From contig OX597823.1 in the NCBI GenBank assembly GCA_951406725.2, positions 87,172,001 to 87,236,000 on the forward strand: 64,000 nucleotides of DNA, read 5' to 3'. The number at the start of each line of letters is the position of its first letter. Position 1 is the stretch's first letter. The notes beneath the pieces are model-generated. The model searched no databases and was not told where the DNA came from. It saw only the letters and a program-made list of their open reading frames with translations. Below, piece after piece: positions 8,937 through 61,078 of the stretch. The position numbers were made by a program, and so were the translations under genes. This DNA comes from Octopus vulgaris (lineage: Eukaryota).

Positions 8937-8975
8937 GGCGCAGGAGTGGCTGTGTGGTAAGTAGCTTGCTAACCA
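8937..8975 (+). mobile_element. SINE family A, 5' 39 bp (left piece of an interrupted copy)
   Basis: ggcgcaggagtggctgtgtggtaagtagcttgctaacca equals the 5' end of the intact copy at 19247-19615(-). It continues at 11215. Confidence 0.9.
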
Positions 8976-9673
8976 GACATGCGCAGTTAGTCGGTTGCTT
9001 CCTGTTGAGCTAGAGTGGACGTGAGTAACAAACTCCTTCCAACTAAAGAAAAAAGACCAAAAACGGAAAGTTGTCGAGGTAAGTGATTTTGTTTATTGTG
9101 AGTTGGGCATAATTTATTGCGTGCCAATTATTATTTCAGTAGGTTGTGTCCAACTCTGAGACAATTTCGCCTGCGCTAGGCGGCTGCCGTTTTTGTGTTC
9201 ATTGAAAAAAAAAAAAAAAAAAAAACAGTGGAGGGGCGTATCCTCAGAATTCAATACAGTTACCGTTAAAATCACCGTTGGCGGTAGCCAGTGCTGTGTT
9301 TGGATTTGTTGAATTTATTCCCTTGTCAGAGTACTTCGCAAGAAAAGTATAAAAATAAGCCACTATTGGATTACCTTTCGGACCTTTTTGTGGAGGTTGT
9401 GTTACAGTTGCGGTGTTCCAGGTTCAACCCAGGCCGGGAGTACCGCAAGGCCAGAATATTTTTGCTGTGTTTTTTCTGTTTATTAACTTTCTTTTGAACT
9501 TCATTTACCCCCCCCCCTTTTGTTTTTTCTTTATTGCGACTTTCCGTTAATTTCTTCCCTTCTGTTGTGCTTTCTCCTTTTTGTTTTTTCAAAAATCTAT
9601 CAAATTTATTTAGACTTTTGAACTTTTTTCTTCCTGCTTTTGAGTCTAATTTGAATATAATTTTTTAAAAAAC

Positions 9674-10918
9674 ATGGCAATGAAAAATAACAAAGTTTTG
9701 GAGTGGGAAATCATACTACCCAAAAAGTGGTTGAAGGACCGTGAAGATAGGACGGTGGTGTTGAGAACCTACTCCAAGGCACTTGACACCATCGCCCTAT
9801 TCGAAAAGACGGCAATTGAGGAGGAGTTGGAGGAATATTTGCCAACAATTAAATTCATTTCCAGGGGTGTCAAATATGGAACGGTGTGGTTGCTGTTTGA
9901 CACCCCTGAAGAGGCTTGCAAATTTGCTAGCGAACCCTTGGAGGGTAAGGAAATCTTATTCCTGCCCACTTACAAAAAAAAGAAATTGATGAAAGCTTGG
10001 ATCTGCGGACTGCCACCCGACATAGAACCCGAGTGGATAGAGGAGACTATCCGCCGGGGTCTGGGTGACAGCGAAACTAAGCTCCTCAATGTAAAAGTTC
10101 TTCCTGCGGCTGCTTGGGTTGGCTCGAAAGCAGTTTTGACCCTGTGGACCCAATCAGCCAATCTGGTTTTTCCAGATTTTTTGAAAATGGCCGGGTGCAG
10201 GTACCCGGTGATGCTTGAGGGTCGCCCCCCTAAGTGTCATCGGTGCTTGGAGTCCGGCCACATAAAGAAGAACTGTCCTCGGGAACAAAATAGGATCCCG
10301 GAACAGTTAAGTAAAACCCCTCTAGAAGAGGGAACGATAACGGCCGAGAAAGCAGAGGACTCCTCAAGCAGAGGCCGAAAGAGGAAGGTGAGCAACAATG
10401 GGTGCTCACCAAAGGATAATAGGGATGAGGAGAGGAGGGCGAATCTTCCAGCCACGGAGGAGACGCACCCTCCCTCAGTTGAAAAGGGAAAAAAAAAAAA
10501 AAAGAGGAAGAAAAACGGGACGTTGCCGGCTGTCAGTGTGGCACCGGAATGTCGCGGAACTACGTCGGTTGGGGTTGTGCCACCGACAAGAGAAGGAATA
10601 CCGTTGGCGGAAACTGTGCCGCCAACGAAAGAACTGAATGTATTGGTCCTCTTCTATAGAGGAGGAGAAATTGAAAAAGTGATGGAAGAGCACTACAAGG
10701 GAGCACCTTTAGCCTTCACACAGGACCCCGAATGGCCTCCGCAGGTAGCTGTGGAGGCCGTGGCGTTCGACGTGACGCTAGGGCTAAAGGAGCTCAATGA
10801 AGACTATAACTTGGTCCCGGGCGACGCGAACTCGGAACTTGACTACGTTCTGAGGGAGGCGTGGTTGATGGTGGAGGGCGCAGGCACAAGCTATTTCGAG
10901 GACGATATGTATTATTAG
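9674..10918 (+). CDS. L1/Tx1-type ORF1 nucleic-acid-binding protein (RRM-like region, CCHC zinc knuckle), 414 aa
   Basis: Uninterrupted non-repetitive ATG ORF. It has WICGLPPDIEPEWIEETI (RRM-like), VMLEGRPPKCHRCLESGHIKKNCP (CX2CX4HX4C) and a basic KKKKKRKK segment. Confidence 0.85.
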   Translation: MAMKNNKVLEWEIILPKKWLKDREDRTVVLRTYSKALDTIALFEKTAIEEELEEYLPTIKFISRGVKYGTVWLLFDTPEEACKFASEPLEGKEILFLPTYKKKKLMKAWICGLPPDIEPEWIEETIRRGLGDSETKLLNVKVLPAAAWVGSKAVLTLWTQSANLVFPDFLKMAGCRYPVMLEGRPPKCHRCLESGHIKKNCPREQNRIPEQLSKTPLEEGTITAEKAEDSSSRGRKRKVSNNGCSPKDNRDEERRANLPATEETHPPSVEKGKKKKKRKKNGTLPAVSVAPECRGTTSVGVVPPTREGIPLAETVPPTKELNVLVLFYRGGEIEKVMEEHYKGAPLAFTQDPEWPPQVAVEAVAFDVTLGLKELNEDYNLVPGDANSELDYVLREAWLMVEGAGTSYFEDDMYY

Positions 10919-11044
10919 TAATGGACTTAAGTCCAAAAATTGAAAAATTGTAAGAGGATTAATACCTCGTTTTGTATTAATAATGGACTGCTAAGCCCAA
11001 AATTGGAAAAATTGTAAGAGGTTTAATACCTCGTTTTGTGTTAA
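10919..11044 (+). repeat. Two tandem ~62-bp units at the start of the 3'UTR
   Basis: taatggact..aag.ccaaaa.t.gaaaaattgtaagagg.ttaatacctcgttttgt.ttaa occurs twice. Confidence 0.85.
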
Positions 11045-11214
11045 TCTTTTTAAAAAGAACAATGTTTTAGAGAAGCAAAAGTCGGCGGGCGCTTTCTGTC
11101 TTCTCCCATCCTTATCATCTTTCTTTCATTATCATTCACCTCATTAATGTCCTCGTCCAGCCCGCAAAGCTAACTTAATCTGTGTACTGCCTTTATGGCA
11201 AATGTTTTGAAATA

Positions 11215-11597
11215 AAGTAGCTTGCTAACCAACCACATGCTTCCGGGTTCTGTCCCACTGCGTGGCATCTTGGGCAAGTGTCTTCTGCTATAGCCCCGGG
11301 CCGACCAATACCTTGTGAGTGGATGTGGTAGACGGAAACTGAAAGAAGCCTGTCGTATATATGTATATATATATATGTGTGTGTGTGTGTTTGTGTGTCT
11401 GTGTTTGTCCCCCTAGCATTGCTTGACAACCGATGCTGGTGTGTTTACGTCCCCGTCATTTAGCGGTTCGGCAAAAGAAACCGATAGAATAAGTACTTAC
11501 AAAGAATAAGTCCCGGGGTCGATTTGCTCGACTAAAGGCGGTGCTCCAGCATGGGCGCAGTCAAAATGACTGAAACAAGTAAAAGAGTAAAAAGAGT
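11215..11597 (+). mobile_element. SINE family A, remainder of the interrupted copy
   Basis: B-box-like ggttctgtccc, CORE-like cttgggcaagtgtctt, internal (TA)/(TG) tract, and tail ggcggtgctccagcatgg...gactgaaacaagtaaaagag. Confidence 0.9.
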
Positions 11598-21545: not shown

Positions 21546-23990
<2,445 letters not shown>

Positions 23991-28335: not shown

Positions 28336-28826
28336 TATTCTCTGCGTATATCAGTTTTAAATTCTAGGTATAGGTGTTCGAGAATCGGTGGTTAGATTTC
28401 TCGTTTTAGCGTAGATTCCATTTTGTAGCAAATAGTCTGATTTTCACTTGTATTTTTAGAACGTTCTACATTATTTAGAATGTTTTATTTTATGTTATCT
28501 TGTAGTATTTAGTTTTAGTTCTGACTTGAACTCAGAACTATAACTAAATACCGCAAGGCAGTTTATCTGATGCTTAAACGATTTTGCTAATCCACCCTCC
28601 GAAATAACGGCTTCAAATTTTGACACGTGGCCAGCAGTTTTTGTGCAGGTGGTGTTAGTCGTTTACATCGACTCCAGTACTTGACTGGTACTTATTTTAT
28701 TACCCAAAAGGATAAAAGTCAAAGCCGACCTCGGCAAAATTTGAACTCAGAACATAAAGACAGATGAAAAGTCATTAAGCTAATGGTCCTGCCAGTTCAC
28801 CACCCTTATCCACCCCAGCCCCAACC

Positions 28827-29285
28827 TCTAAATATTAATTTCGTAGGTACAAGGCCAGACTTTTACAACAAAGATTAATTCGATCTAAACGTCCCAGATT
28901 TTGGCTTGAACTTTTATTTTATCAAGACTTCAATGAGGTTTGAAATCAAATCATAAACTTGCAGAACAAACCACCGTGGCATTTTGGTCACCGCTCTAAG
29001 TGTATCGACAATCCAAAATGTAATACTCTGAGAGCGATATGTCAAGCAGTTCAACTTCTAAATATTATTTTCTTGGGTACAAGGCCAGCCGTTTACAACA
29101 AGGGTTAATTCGAACTAACCGTCCCAGTTTTTGGCTTGAAGTTTTATATTATCAAGACTTCGATGGGGTTTGAAATCAGATCTCAAACTGGCAGAACAAA
29201 CCACCGTGGAATTTTCTTCACCGCTCTAAGTATATCGACAAGCCAAAATGGAATACTCTAAGGGTGATATGTCAAGCATTTCAAC
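28827..29285. repeat. Tandem duplication, 2 x ~230 bp
   Basis: The units start tctaaatatta...ggtacaaggccag at ~28827 and ~29057, and both end gatatgtcaagca.ttcaac. Confidence 0.85.
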
Positions 29286-30470
29286 CGATCCTCTGTAATT
29301 CGACCAAAACAATAACGTTATATTTGGTGCAGAGAACTAAATTTCTAATATATGCTTACTTTGTTTGGATTTTTTCTTTCTATATTCCAAGATAGATTGG
29401 CATTACTTATAAGAGGAAATAATAATTCCTACTTCATGAATTCTATTTCAATATTTTTAACATATATTCTTGATTTTTACCATTATCTCATCAAGTTTAT
29501 CAATTTTATTTGTCACTCACTCATTTTCTCTCCTGCTATATTATGATTCTATCAACCCCATTTCTCTTCCATTAACTTACAAAAAGCTTTCTTTTCTTCA
29601 AATTTAACCTCTCTATATCTAAATCCGTTCCTATTGGCCGTTCATTTACGGAAAAAATTTGTAGTCTACTTTTATCTTTCACTCTTCTTTCTGTCTTCCT
29701 TTTCACTATTGCTCTGTCTCTCGCTTCTTTCTCGCGTTATCGTTCTCTCTGTTTCTCTCGTCTTACAATAGCATACTATTACCTCCATTAATTTGCAAAA
29801 ATTTTCTACCCTTCTGGTTACATAACCTATTCAAGCATTTCAATTTGATTTATCAGATGATGAAATTTCTATTACAGCAAACTAACTCAATTATTTCCTA
29901 TAAATCCTATTCTCACATTGAATTATAAATGTATTTATTACATTTATTATTTGGTATAATTATTAGTATTTTCTTTATAATTTAATGGAGTGAAAATAAC
30001 TTCGATATTAAAACATACATATTTAAGGAGAGAGAGAGAAAGAAGAAAAAAAAACAATATATTCGCAATAGTGGTGGGGGGGGAGAAAAAGAGATAGAGA
30101 GAAGCAGAGCGGGATACAGAGAGACAAAGAAATAGAGGAAATAAAACGGTAAAGATGTAAAGAGAACAGAGAAACAACGACGAAGAAAACGAACAAAAGT
30201 TAAAGAAGATGGAAAGAGAGAAAATTAACATGGATGTGTGTGCAGCAGAACAAGAGGTAAGTTAAAAGTAGAAGGAAATATCGATGAGGGTTCAATACAC
30301 ATCTGAACCTATATAAATGTTGCTACAAGGACAGCAATCTCGGTTGAATGGATAAATAGATAACATCCATCTAGTGTTCAACTTGAATTTATTTTATGGA
30401 ACCAGAACAAAAGACAAAGGTCGACCTCAGTGGAAATTGAACACATGTAAAATTAAAAGAAATGCTGCTA

Positions 30471-32410: not shown

Positions 32411-33189
32411 AGGTGGTGAGCTAGCAGAAACGTTAGCACGCCGGGCGAAATGCTTATCGGTATTTCGTCTGTCTCTACGTTGTGAGTTCAAATTCCGCCG
32501 AGGTCGACTTTGCCTTTCATCTTTTCGGGGTCGATAAATTAAGTACCAGTTACGCACCGGGGTCGATGTAATCGACTTAATACCTATGTCTGTCCTTGTT
32601 TGTCCCCTTTATGTTTAGCCCCTTGTGGGTAATAAAGAAATAGGTATTTCGTCTGCCGCTACGTTCTGAGTTCAAATTCCGCCGAGGTCGACTTTGCCTT
32701 TCATCCTTTCGGGGTCGATTAAATAAGTACCAGTTACGCACTAGGGTCGATATAATCGACTTAATCCGTTTCTCTGTCTTTGTCTCCTCTGTGTTTAGCT
32801 CCTTGTGGGTAGTAAAAAAATAGGTATTTCGTCTGCCATACGCTCTGAGTTCATATTCTGCCGAGGTCGATTTTGCCTTTCATCCTTTCGGGGTCGATAA
32901 ATTAAGTACCAGTTACGCACTAGGGTCGATGTAATCGACTTAATTCCTTTGTCTATCCTTGTTTGTCCTCTTTGTGTTTAGCCCCTTGTGGGTAGTAAAG
33001 AAATAGGTATTTTCTCTACCGTTAAGTTCTGAATTCAAATTCCGCCGAGGTCGACTTTGCCTTTCATCCTTTCGGGGTCGATTAAATAAGTACCAGTTAC
33101 GCACTGGGGTCGATATAATTGACTTTATTCGTTTGTCTGTCCTTGTTTGTTCCCTCTGTGCGTAGCCCCTTGTGGGCAGTAAAGAAATG
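32411..33189 (+). mobile_element. SINE family B tetramer (one head + four ~183-bp units) with TSD
   Basis: The units start ggtattt at 32459, 32643, 32823 and 33006. The flanking repeat agaagtaaaa(c/t)gtcaag lies at 32396-32412 and 33190-33206. The core gcctttcatcctttcggggtcgataaattaagtaccag resembles the Meta/MESC SINE domain (from memory). Confidence 0.9.
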
Positions 33190-49470: not shown

Positions 49471-49906
49471 CAAGATGGGCTACAGCAAATATTCTGCTCA
49501 ATAGTACAGATTTGCTTGTCAGTTGTTTGACCGTAATCATTTGAGTATGTCCCTCAATGGCTGACGATATGTGCATCTCTGATCACGAGCAGAAGTAGCG
49601 GGGGAGCATCATAGCCATGTGTTGAGAGGAACTTTTTGGAGTTTGCATAATTCACCTCTGGAAACATGAGTGCTTTGTTCAACATCCTTAACCAACCGTT
49701 ATTCAAGGAACATTTGAGCGGGACGGGCTACTTGACCTGGAGAAAATTCTAACTTGGCCCCACTTGCAAGGTCATGTGCTGTTTGTCTTGATATGTGATC
49801 TCCATGTCGCGCACATTTGGTTGTGATGCATGATCCTAGTGTACCTTTATCAGACCTGTAATCATGATGGGTATACTAGGTTTCGTATATTGTACCCCAG
49901 TGTCAC
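49471..49906 (+). mobile_element. ~550-bp TAA-associated repeat, copy 4 (truncated at both ends)
   Basis: Homologous to 24232-24665. Confidence 0.85.
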
Positions 49907-49912
49907 TACAAT

Positions 49913-50232
49913 TTGATACTTTCCTGATTATTCTGGCCGTGACAAGGAGGCAAACCTTTTGTAACAGCTCTACTGGGCACTCTATTTCAATTTCTTTTAT
50001 ATTCTCCTTGATGCCTTCTGATACTGTTCCCAAGGACCCAACAATATTTGGTATTATCTTTACTTTTTTCATTTTCCATAGCCGGGTTATTTCGTTCTTG
50101 TGAGGGTTGTATTTATCTATCTTTTCGCCTAACTTCTTGATTATTTGAGGGTCAAAGTGACATGCAATATCAACTATATAGCATACGTGATGCATCTTGT
50201 CCACCACTGCTAGGACCGGTCTGCTATGCTCT
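49913..50232 (-). mobile_element. Inverted duplicate of the REL domain of R4 family D (48988-49283)
   Basis: EHSRPVLAVVDKMH.VCYIVD.ACHFDPQIIKKL.EKIDKY is shared with the + copy. Confidence 0.88.
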
Positions 50233-50233
50233 A

Positions 50234-50698
50234 CTTTCAGCTCGAGTGTTATGGCCATGCTGGGGCACCGCCGTTAGATGTGCTACACTTTAATTGAAAC
50301 CTCCACTGATATGTGGTATTTGACGATTGAGGGAATTTGATGTTGCTGCACTCATTTCCATTTCATACATCGAAGCAAGTTTTTTCCAGAACTACTGACA
50401 GGAGGAGATCCAGTTACATCGTGAAGATACCTACATCCACACTATGAAGATCTGTCATGCGTTTTGAGAGATAACTGAAGCGCTGTGGATCCTTGAAATC
50501 CAAGCTGTTTCCAGTATCAAGTCCTGCAATTTGATGATACTGTTGGGATGATATCTTGCACTATGCAGTGGCGCCTCTTTATGCTGTTTGAGTGACGTTC
50601 AATGCCGTAATCTGGTACGAGTCCTTCCAAGATCTCCCAGATGAATGACACGGTATATCTTTCCCACCATCACTCCAGATGGCTAGTCTTAACTTCCT
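50234..50698 (-). mobile_element. CR1-group LINE 3' fragment, degenerate
   Basis: Minus-strand remnant WERYTVSFIWEILEGLVPDYGI resembles RRERY.II..WKILEGLVPN.GI. The 3' tail is ggcggtgccccagcatggcc...gctgaaag. Confidence 0.65.
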
Positions 50699-58512: not shown

Positions 58513-61078
58513 TATGTTTGACTTTTGCTTTATATTTGTACAAGTTGGCTCCAAGTCTCACCTAGAGACCTCAAGAGACAACAGGGTTGGAAGTTCATGT
58601 TGTTGTTATGCCTAGTGTGCCATATATTTGGGGGGTGGTGGTGTTGTACCAATGAATGTCTAAAAAAAAATTTTTTTTTTTTTTTTTTTAAAACGAAAAT
58701 TATTTTTGTTTTAAACATTGAAATTACATACAAAGTATTTTGCGTAGGATATGAGCAGTTCCCATGAGCACTATCTTTTGAATTTCTGCCATTTTGGGGT
58801 TTCCTGGTATCTGAGTTAGGTAGATATATGCCCCTTTTGCTATCATTCCCAGGGCACCTATGACAACAGGTATTGTTTTAGTCTTCAGCTTCCACATTTT
58901 GCTGATTTCTATTTCAAGATCTTTATATTTGCTCAGTTTTTGGTAGGTCTTGACAGATACGTTTATATCGATTGGGACAGTCATATCAATGAGGAGGCAT
59001 GTTCTTTGTTTGAAGTGTTTCAATATGATGTCTGGCCTATTTGCATCTATCTTTCTGTCAGTTTGAATGGCGAAGTTCCAGAGGAGTGAGATGTGGTCAT
59101 TTTCAAGCACTGGGGGTGGTTTGTGTTCCCACCAGTTTTTTTCGTGGGGCAAATCCAGGTTTTTACAGATTCTCCAGTGAATATATCGTGCCTGTTGAGA
59201 TACTCTGTAGGCACTAGAAGACTGCACTTGGAGACCACATGGTCAATGGTTTCATTTTGTTGCTTGCATACACGACACGTTGGACTGCTTCTGATCTTTA
59301 TATGTTGGCCTGGTAGTTTCTTGTTGGTAGGCATTGATCTTGAGCTGCTATGATAAACCCCTCTGTTTCAGATTTTAAGCCAGAGGCCATTAGCCATTGT
59401 TGGGTCAGGGCTTTGTCAACATCTGCATTATTTGCTCTCTTTGGGTATTTGCCATAGAGAGGTTTTTCTTTCCATTTATCATTCAGAATATCTAAGACCG
59501 CAGATTTAGCACGGGTTTTCATGCGCTTAGCTTTTTCTGTGCCTGTTTCTTGTATGTCTATCTCTAATTCCGAAATTTGTTGTATTCGGAATTCACTTAG
59601 ATATTCCTTTGCCTGTTTTGTTACTGAGTATGATGCTTTCTTGTTTTCATGTTTTGAGACAAGTTTTAACATCCAGTCCTCAGAGTTTTTCAGGTAGGTG
59701 TCTAGGCCAATTGTAGCAATCTTCATTGTTATTGCCAGTTGTAAAAGTCCACGGCCTCCTCTTTTCTTGGCAGATAAAGTCGTTCTGTATCTGCCTTAGG
59801 GTGGTGCATTCTATGCATTGTCAACAGTTTTCGTATTTTTCTGTCAAGATTACATATTTCAGTAATTGACCAGTTAACGATACTGAAACTGTAAGTCACG
59901 ACTGGTATGGCTAATGCATTGATCGCTTCGATCCTGTTTCTCGCATTCAGCTCTGTCTTGAGTATTGCTCTTACTCTGCGATAACATTCTCTCCTGATCC
60001 TTTCCTTCATCTCTGAATGCCTTATTCCTTCTCCTTCAATTACCCCTAGATACTTGTAGTTCTCTGCTGGGTCTAATTCTTTTATGACATTCTGCTGGTC
60101 AAGGTTAACGTTAGATGTTTCTGTCATTTTTCCTTTGATAAAGGTAGCTTTTGCGCATTTATCGAGGCCAAATTGCATTCTGATGTCATCACTGAATTGT
60201 TTGACAATCGCTAGTAAGCCCTTGAGTTGTTGGTCATTTTTTTGCAAAGAGCTTTAAATCATCCATGTAAATGAAATGATTTATATTTTTATCAAACATT
60301 TTATATCCGTACTGCGCATCATTGAGCAGTTTTGAGAGAGGTATTAAGGCTAAACAGAAGAGGAGCGGTGATAGTGAGTCACCCTGGAAAATGCCACATG
60401 AAATTTTTACATCACCAGCATTTAGAGATTTATTGTCACTGTTCAAAGTTAGTGTGGTTCTCCATGATCTCATACTTACAGACAAAAAGTTTCGCAGAGC
60501 AGGTGCTATCTTATACATTTCTAGGCATTTATTAATCCAGCTATGTGGTAGGCTATCAAAAGCCTTTTTATAGTCTATCCAAGCTATTGATAAGTTTTTG
60601 TGTCGTTTGTGACAATCTTCTAAGATCATCTTATTGACGAGTAGTTGATCTTTACAACCGTAGGATCCACGTTTACATCCTTTCTGTTCATTAGGGAATA
60701 TGCTGCTGTCTGTCAAAAAACTATAGGTATATTCCGTCAGGACAGATGTTAGTGTTTTATACATAGTTGTTAAGCAGGTTATGGGTCTATAGTTTTTGGG
60801 TTCATTTGTTTCTTCACTTTTTGGAAGCAGGAATGTTAACCCATTAACTAGCCAAGGAGGCATCCTACTAGGGTTTTGCAAAACATCATTGTAAAGTTCT
60901 GCTAGCAGTTCATGGCTCTCTGGGAAGGCATTCAACCAAAAGTTAGGGATTTTATCCTTTCCTGGAGACTTCCATTTGCTTGACCTCCTGAGAGCAGATC
61001 TTATATCTTCTACCTTGACACCCTCCCACTTTTGCTCTTCTAAGGAGTCCAGTTCTTTAGATATTCTATCAATCCATC
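58512..61078 (-). mobile_element. R4/Dong-clade LINE family A, 5'-truncated 2.57-kb copy, few frameshifts
   Basis: WKSPGKD, NYRPITCL, QKGC, DYKKAFDS, QGDSLSP, YMDD, CCHC and RPDIILK..LIDMTVP..KLSKY, with (TAA)n at both ends. Confidence 0.93.

Follow-up and report, generated by a model that had tools for sequence, protein, structure and literature searches.

The window, a stretch of 64,000 nucleotides of Octopus vulgaris DNA, contains an insert of 2239 bp lying between two exact copies of a 17-mer, at 8959-8975 and 11215-11231 (2256 bp apart). The insert splits a SINE copy, as the original prediction had stated, with the SINE head (8937-8958) on the left and the SINE body on the right. A 19-mer spanning the insertion site was observed at six places in the window (at most 3 mismatches) against none expected, namely the two junctions of the element and four other SINE copies. 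Contigs from four sequencing runs, with three organism labels, cover 30 of the 30 bins of the locus, and SINE reads swamp the joints. The features of the locus are listed below in window positions; subfamily A' and the partner, an autonomous element at the same target, are described further on.

8937..8958, + strand: 5' head (22 bp) of the host tRNA-derived SINE; the same head lies left of 27 of 30 element copies
8947-8957, + strand: A-box-like stretch of the SINE head, from weakly aligning tRNA genes of this genome
8959..8968, + strand: left target-site duplication (TSD), about 9-10 bp, from junction variants clustering at target positions 8-10
8968..8975, + strand: target-like 5' end belonging to the element itself (11 of 11 informative copies; similar on A' and the partner)
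8976..9673, + strand: 5' UTR of the element, whose first 356 bp are swapped for another 5' end in subfamily A'
9674-10918, + strand: ORF1, 414 aa (longest frame of the window, knuckle match, structure prediction, ORF1 homology)
10913..11045, + strand: tandem duplication of 64 bp where the 3' UTR begins, present in nearly all family copies examined
11164..11177, + strand: stretch of the 3' UTR similar to the target in reverse complement, degenerate in this copy, with a 6-nt exact core
11188..11214, + strand: 3' tip with a small predicted hairpin (4-bp stem) and an A-rich end; best nucleotide match to the partner
11215..11224, + strand: right TSD, from comparison of junctions across copies
11215..11597 (end approximate), + strand: remaining host SINE (body, microsatellite and tail), from similarity to intact SINE copies
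11246-11256, + strand: B-box-like stretch of the host SINE, within its right-hand part

The element does not end in a poly(A) tail. The terminal AATAA(A) noted earlier is present as AATAAA at 11211-11216, but its last two bases belong to the target. Elsewhere in the window, broken copies of an unrelated LINE (RT and C-terminal pieces) were found at 21709-23334 (+), 58724-61076 (-) and 49836-50273 (-), possibly R4/Dong-like by its motifs. Two tandem arrays, at 32459-33188 and 28822-29286, have units of 184 bp and 230 bp, and the 184-bp unit looks like part of a second SINE family.

ORF1 encodes 414 aa from its ATG (422 from stop to stop), which bears out its description as the longest ORF of the window, the other long non-repeat frames being pieces of retroelements. 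An RRM-like region had been proposed; an RRM fold is indeed predicted, but as two domains and not one, and the CX2CX4HX4C knuckle was found directly downstream of them. The parts of the protein are as follows.

Residues about 15-102: predicted RRM1 (structure model)
Residues about 103-185: predicted RRM2 (structure model)
Residues 188-201: CCHC knuckle (motif; Pfam match below the cut-off)
Between the knuckle and the C-terminal region: low-complexity basic linker
Residues about 320-410: small conserved C-terminal region

The structure model of residues 1-210 has a mean pLDDT of 84.6, and Foldseek searches with it retrieved tandem-RRM proteins (best E 3e-5); against single RRMs the model gave Z of about 7-9 and an rmsd of 2-3 Å over 70-80 residues. 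The knuckle matches Pfam zf-CCHC with an E of 0.008, which is below the curated cut-off. The N-terminal half of the protein aligns with ORF1 of two-ORF elements of the same genome (24-34% identity, best E about 5e-29), and a protein search of limited sensitivity returned two matches only, both labelled Octopus sinensis. Downstream of the stop codon lie 296 bp, in agreement with the approximately 300 bp of non-RT sequence counted previously, and tblastn of two ORF2 proteins against the element detected no ORF2 remnant (best E 0.7). Of the 30 best copies, 15 retain an open frame, and the breaks in the others are mostly indels in homopolymer runs; a frameshift at codon 186, seen in eight copies that were selected for that break, lies in a C6 run.

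To define the family, we searched the 2.8-Gb genome with the insert alone as a SINE-free query and scored 40 of the 3295 candidates. Thirty of these 40 were full-length copies, 95-100% identical, which supports the multi-copy structure anticipated for this element, and the other 10 aligned only to positions 357-2239 of the query, lacking the first 356 bp (subfamily A'). In all 30 best full-length copies the element stops at one and the same base of the SINE, so the flanks are not random; on the left, 27 adjoin the SINE head and three the 3' end of a related element. All 30 share the 2.2-kb structure without ORF2, in line with the HAL1-type (ORF1-only) organization claimed earlier, and the locus is thus no one-off deletion. 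The ORF has at least 150 genomic matches. Among 217 exact genome-wide matches to the last 26 bases of the family, the target hexamer follows in 212, leaving five 3' ends without the exact hexamer, and reversed-pattern controls gave 0. Thirty 3' ends sampled in genome order were all within the SINE, with few 5'-truncated copies. Some family copies at the SINE site (L137/L335 and L344) have large internal deletions with both ends kept, and in one internally deleted copy only 46 bp remain at the 5' end and 43 bp at the 3' end. The ORF1-only element is a young, multi-copy retroelement family, with about 200 copies at one exact base of the SINE.

The exact 17-bp repeat at the locus had been read as a perfect 17-bp TSD; the repeat is real, but the true TSD is about 9-10 bp. 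In copies whose host SINE differs from the element at target positions 11-14, the left side carries the letters of the element in 11 of 11 cases (35 of 37 copies could be parsed). A change specific to one host at target position 7 is duplicated (L003), junction variants with extra bases cluster at target positions 8-10, and in subfamily A' the duplication is 9 bp in eight of nine copies, the ninth being followed by another A' unit. All these observations place the TSD at 9-10 bp, and the locus shows an apparent 17 bp because its host SINE happens to match the 5' end of the element. The remaining 7-8 bases of the 17-mer are the target-like 5' end of the element, which rebuilds the target at the left junction. 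The 5' end of the partner is likewise target-like, and short passengers without such an end have apparent duplications of 9-17 bp, as judged by eye.

The host is a tRNA-derived SINE, with a tRNA-like head, A and B boxes and high copy number. Its head shows weak alignment with tRNA genes of the Lys/Glu/Ala type in this genome. Within the window, ARAGORN detected no tRNA genes, and Rfam did not match one of the SINE copies to any tRNA. Insertion into the anticodon loop, as first suggested, does not agree with these weak tRNA alignments, which put the 3' junction immediately past the GG of the D-loop, on the A-box edge; the anticodon loop is reached only by the apparent 17-mer. The 7-mer core of the target is absent from 25 distinct tRNA sequences of this genome (30 loci fetched), and none of three inspected, overlapping sets of 30 copies (two of the element, one of the partner) contained a copy in a tRNA gene. 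Genome-wide, an exact 30-mer of the empty site has 72,641 matches, compared with 589 exact filled 3' junctions, or about 0.8%.

The SINE site is used by at least five related ORF1-only types, and mixed arrays of up to four units were observed. The ORF1s of the other types are 61-68% identical to the one studied here. In a tree, 11 ORF1-only ORF1s, in a clade including the O. sinensis protein, were separated from 10 other ORF1s (9 from two-ORF loci and 1 of undetermined context) with support of 100/100. Over the two RRMs, dN/dS was 0.09-0.30 in 55 of the 55 pairs of these 11 ORF1s, values that are imprecise since dS exceeds 1 in many pairs and that come from non-independent pairs. The dN/dS calculation proposed for this ORF thus reveals purifying selection, and, as judged from these sequences, the ORF1-only elements are an old lineage of half elements.

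Arrays and other insertions were also seen in the genome. At L065 (G000:C4:151498000-151507500), four or more ORF1-only units from different families lie head to tail with the target core between them. A second SINE family is sometimes located at the same SINE base (L161-L182, e.g. L164-L167, L170, L175, L180 and L181); its insertions there are in many cases 5'-truncated and show apparent duplications of 9-17 bp, and in its tail it is similar to the 3' ends found in other L1/Tx1-type families. Just past the ORF2 3' UTR at L092, a different two-ORF member lies antisense in the same SINE family, near the B box. At L111-L113 (G000:C2:73040000-73069900), a different two-ORF element is repeated in tandem at intervals of about 5.4 kb, and several of its ORF2s, of 1140 aa, are open. 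Another two-ORF group (L105, L120, L121 and L123) has a common 3' flank, which suggests a second specific target.

An autonomous partner of the ORF1-only family could be located via junction patterns only. A zf-RVT search yielded many two-ORF elements, and none of those in 30 loci and 20 further regions occupied the SINE site in sense orientation. When 65 filled sites were taken in genome order and the last 1.5 kb of each insert was examined, ORF1 was found in 32, ORF2 in 13 and neither in 20. The main ORF2-bearing family at the site is 5.45 kb long, with an ORF1 of 467 aa and an ORF2 of 1133 aa, and ORF2 contains an endonuclease (PF03372), an RT (PF00078) and a zf-RVT domain (PF13966), all above the cut-off. 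Among solved structures, human L1 ORF2p is its best relative (E 1e-66). The partner thus has the Tx1-type architecture, with two ORFs and an ORF2 carrying an APE endonuclease, an RT and a C-terminal zinc motif. It is probably best described as an L1/Tx1-type two-ORF LINE, Tx1 being a provisional label, as the homologs retrieved carry no Tx1 names.

Forty partner copies were about 99% alike with a query that contained 26 bases of SINE. When the query was SINE-free, 30 of 30 partner ends were at the target: 28 adjoined the SINE body, one adjoined a further partner copy and one (L284) was directly followed by the 5' end of the ORF1-only family. Among 20 full-length copies, nine have an open ORF2 and three have both ORFs open. 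From its sequence, the partner looks recently active and precise. A partner without a working ORF1, dependent on the half element, was considered and rejected, as the breaks in its ORF1 are mostly scattered one-base indels at homopolymers and the frame is open in 5 of 25 copies. In an ORF2 tree of 28 rows (one short row left out, and built without a named Tx1 reference), five ORF2s from the SINE site form one clade with support of 99/98. A protein of Argonauta hians (P0025), which has 63% identity to the partner ORF2 across half of the region searched, falls outside this clade, and the match indicates that the wider lineage occurs in other octopods.

A search for an autonomous element with a common 3' end had been proposed, and the partner inserts at the same target and has a 3' tip like that of the element. 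At the nucleotide level, the two match best in the last 37 nt (78% identity, E 0.04), and the ORF1 proteins are only 28-29% identical, so the ORF1-only element is no recent deletion derivative of the present partner. For the same reason, the pairing of element and partner rests on the common target, the junctions and the age. Moreover, autonomous elements with at least three types of 3' end occupy the SINE site, and the actual donor ORF2 is therefore not fixed; the partner is a candidate for it.

Could the copies have arisen by a single insertion, after which the SINE and its insert were amplified as one unit? The junctions are common to all copies, and few of the 30 copies taken in genome order are 5'-truncated, as this scenario would predict. 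We compared 43 copies (44 were taken and one, adjoined by another element, was dropped) and found a mean difference of 1.45% in the last 1880 bp of the element and of 9.1% in the next 150 bp of SINE. Among 223 element pairs no more than 0.5% apart, the SINEs differed by 9.3% and no pair was identical. Element and SINE distances are weakly and borderline correlated (Mantel test, rho 0.19, p 0.053), in the direction expected of a joint amplification; this signal may reflect age or subfamily preference. Host SINEs that are about six times more diverged than the elements, and that carry different subfamily variants, demonstrate that the insertions were independent, and the host-specific change duplicated in the TSD of L003 also speaks against a composite unit. 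So do the many diverged families, the two-ORF LINEs, the second SINE family and the mixed arrays at the same base, and we give amplification as a unit very little credence. According to another idea, the ORF is a retrogene copy of a ZCCHC3-like RNA-binding gene, either domesticated or derived from the host; this draws on atlas neighbours that include clusters of ZCCHC3 RNA-binding domains at 0.89-0.91. The question of a host retrocopy or a LINE ORF1, posed with the original prediction, is answered in favour of the latter by homology: the whole N-terminal half aligns with ORF1 of the two-ORF LINEs of this genome, and the at least 150 genomic matches, the fixed junctions and the lack of poly(A) do not fit a retrogene, whose probability we regard as practically negligible.

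Targeting may alternatively depend mainly on proteins bound to the SINE promoter (TFIIIC/TFIIIB tethering) and not on DNA read by the endonuclease. The site is at the A-box edge of a Pol III promoter, tethering through ORF1 has been proposed for TRE5-A in the accessible text of PMC3159450, and only about 0.8% of exact sites are filled, so that access may be limited. Insertion is nevertheless exact to one base and in one orientation, rebuilt targets between two array elements are also hit, and neither the inspected copies nor the tRNA sequences gave any sign of insertion in tRNA genes or of the target core there; tethering as the main cause thus appears quite improbable to us. Taken together, we consider it highly probable that this is a young ORF1-only family inserted at one SINE base and likely moved in trans by a two-ORF LINE that uses the same base; for the movement in trans, the common target, the 3' tip, the age and the mixed arrays are the grounds.

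The 3' UTRs provide a further possible element of this specificity. A match of at least 6 nt to the complement of the target was found in 28 of 36 end types at the SINE site and in 0 of 15 other end types, whereas shuffles gave a mean of 8 matching end types and a maximum of 16; one of three control motifs (the unreversed complement) matched in 24 of 36. The partner 3' UTR contains an exact 9-mer that is the reverse complement of the TSD, 80 nt from its end, with a chance probability of about 8e-4 before correction for choices, and in the ORF1-only passengers the complementary stretch is about 45 nt from the end. As the end-type families are related, the complement may represent a single event, and no convincing covariation of the 3' UTR with the target was seen in other L1/Tx1-type families. 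That this guide-like stretch, complementary to the target's top strand, helps the RNA to open or read the target during target-primed reverse transcription is in our opinion unlikely, though worth stating: it would mean RNA-assisted targeting in an APE-type LINE, kept in both the autonomous partner and its ORF1-only passengers.

For the ORF1-only family moved in trans, we propose the following cycle. The element would be transcribed from its own 5' UTR, and its ORF1 product, with two predicted RRMs and a knuckle, would coat the RNA from which it was made, acting as a chaperone in cis. The partner ORF2 would bind the common 3' tip and, if its endonuclease recognizes the sequence, nick the bottom strand opposite a T/A step at the end of the SINE A box, from which reverse transcription would be primed. 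A second nick 9-10 nt downstream would produce the TSD, and the target-like 5' end likely helps the joining of the 5' junction and rebuilds the target. Later elements can, since the target is rebuilt, stack head to tail at the same site. The SINE may serve as a safe harbour.

The system would then have three levels: a SINE offering more than 70,000 exact targets, a LINE lineage precise to the base and, likely, several long-lived ORF1-only lineages, which keep their own ORF1 under purifying selection though it is 28-29% identical to that of the partner. It opens to natural sequences the question of why non-autonomous elements keep an ORF1, and that of how an APE endonuclease, perhaps helped by RNA, becomes sequence-specific. 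The apparent precision and recent activity of the partner are of interest for site-specific gene insertion. In searches of the open literature, we found no account of a SINE-head target or of ORF1-only passengers in cephalopods. In the accessible parts of the octopus repeat papers PMC13282606, PMC8967140 and PMC9115989 and of PMC11203168, L1-Tx1/Tx1 appears only at the family level or is absent (absent in PMC9115989), and in those of PMC4641428 these and related terms are absent. These families may be contained in the PMC13282606 repeat library, in Repbase or in Dfam.

Comparison with known systems shows where the octopus element belongs. HAL1 (half-L1), as described in the available text of PMC5753468, is a non-autonomous, multi-copy element of the L1 group with ORF1 only. 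The element described here is similarly ORF1-only, has an ORF1 homologous to those of the L1 group and forms a family with TSDs. Unlike HAL1, it is strictly site-specific, lacks poly(A), encodes an RRM-RRM-CCHC ORF1 and represents an old lineage that resembles its likely partner hardly at all in nucleotide sequence. It is probably best called HAL-like, outside the mammalian HAL1 families.

Tx1-clade LINEs, in the portion of PMC4494074 available, include Xenopus Tx1 in Tx1D, crocodilian Tx1-Mar with its SINEU passengers, Keno, Kibi and Koshi, and target specificity is defined there as more than 20% of flanks in one sequence class; the partner (30 of 30 ends) and the ORF1-only family (212 of 217) both exceed this value. 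The octopus elements resemble these LINEs in having fixed sites inside repeats or RNA genes and passengers with a common target, and tandem SINEU-3 insertions sandwich the TSD there, as in the stacking seen here. The targets in that text are DNA transposons, LTR elements, snRNA and 5S genes, satellites and microsatellites, whereas the target here is a SINE head, and ORF1-only passengers, which are present here, are not mentioned in it.

In Dictyostelium, according to the accessible text of PMC3159450, TRE5-A.2 is moved in trans by the ORF2 of TRE5-A.1, ORF1 shows cis preference, and a heterologous ORF1 of 25% identity gave no retrotransposition; TRE5-A provides an experimental precedent for movement in trans and for ORF1 action in cis, but the last result is also a caution for the cycle proposed here. 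TRE5-A.2 is, like our element, ORF1-only and adjoins a Pol III promoter, and it needs an RNA element at its 3' terminus. It is a deletion derivative of its partner, whereas the ORF1s here are just 28-29% identical, and it lands about 50 bp upstream of tRNA genes, for which tethering has been proposed, in contrast to a single base within a SINE. Half elements, Tx1-type targeting of repeats and passengers are each known from these systems, and the novelty of the octopus elements is their combination.
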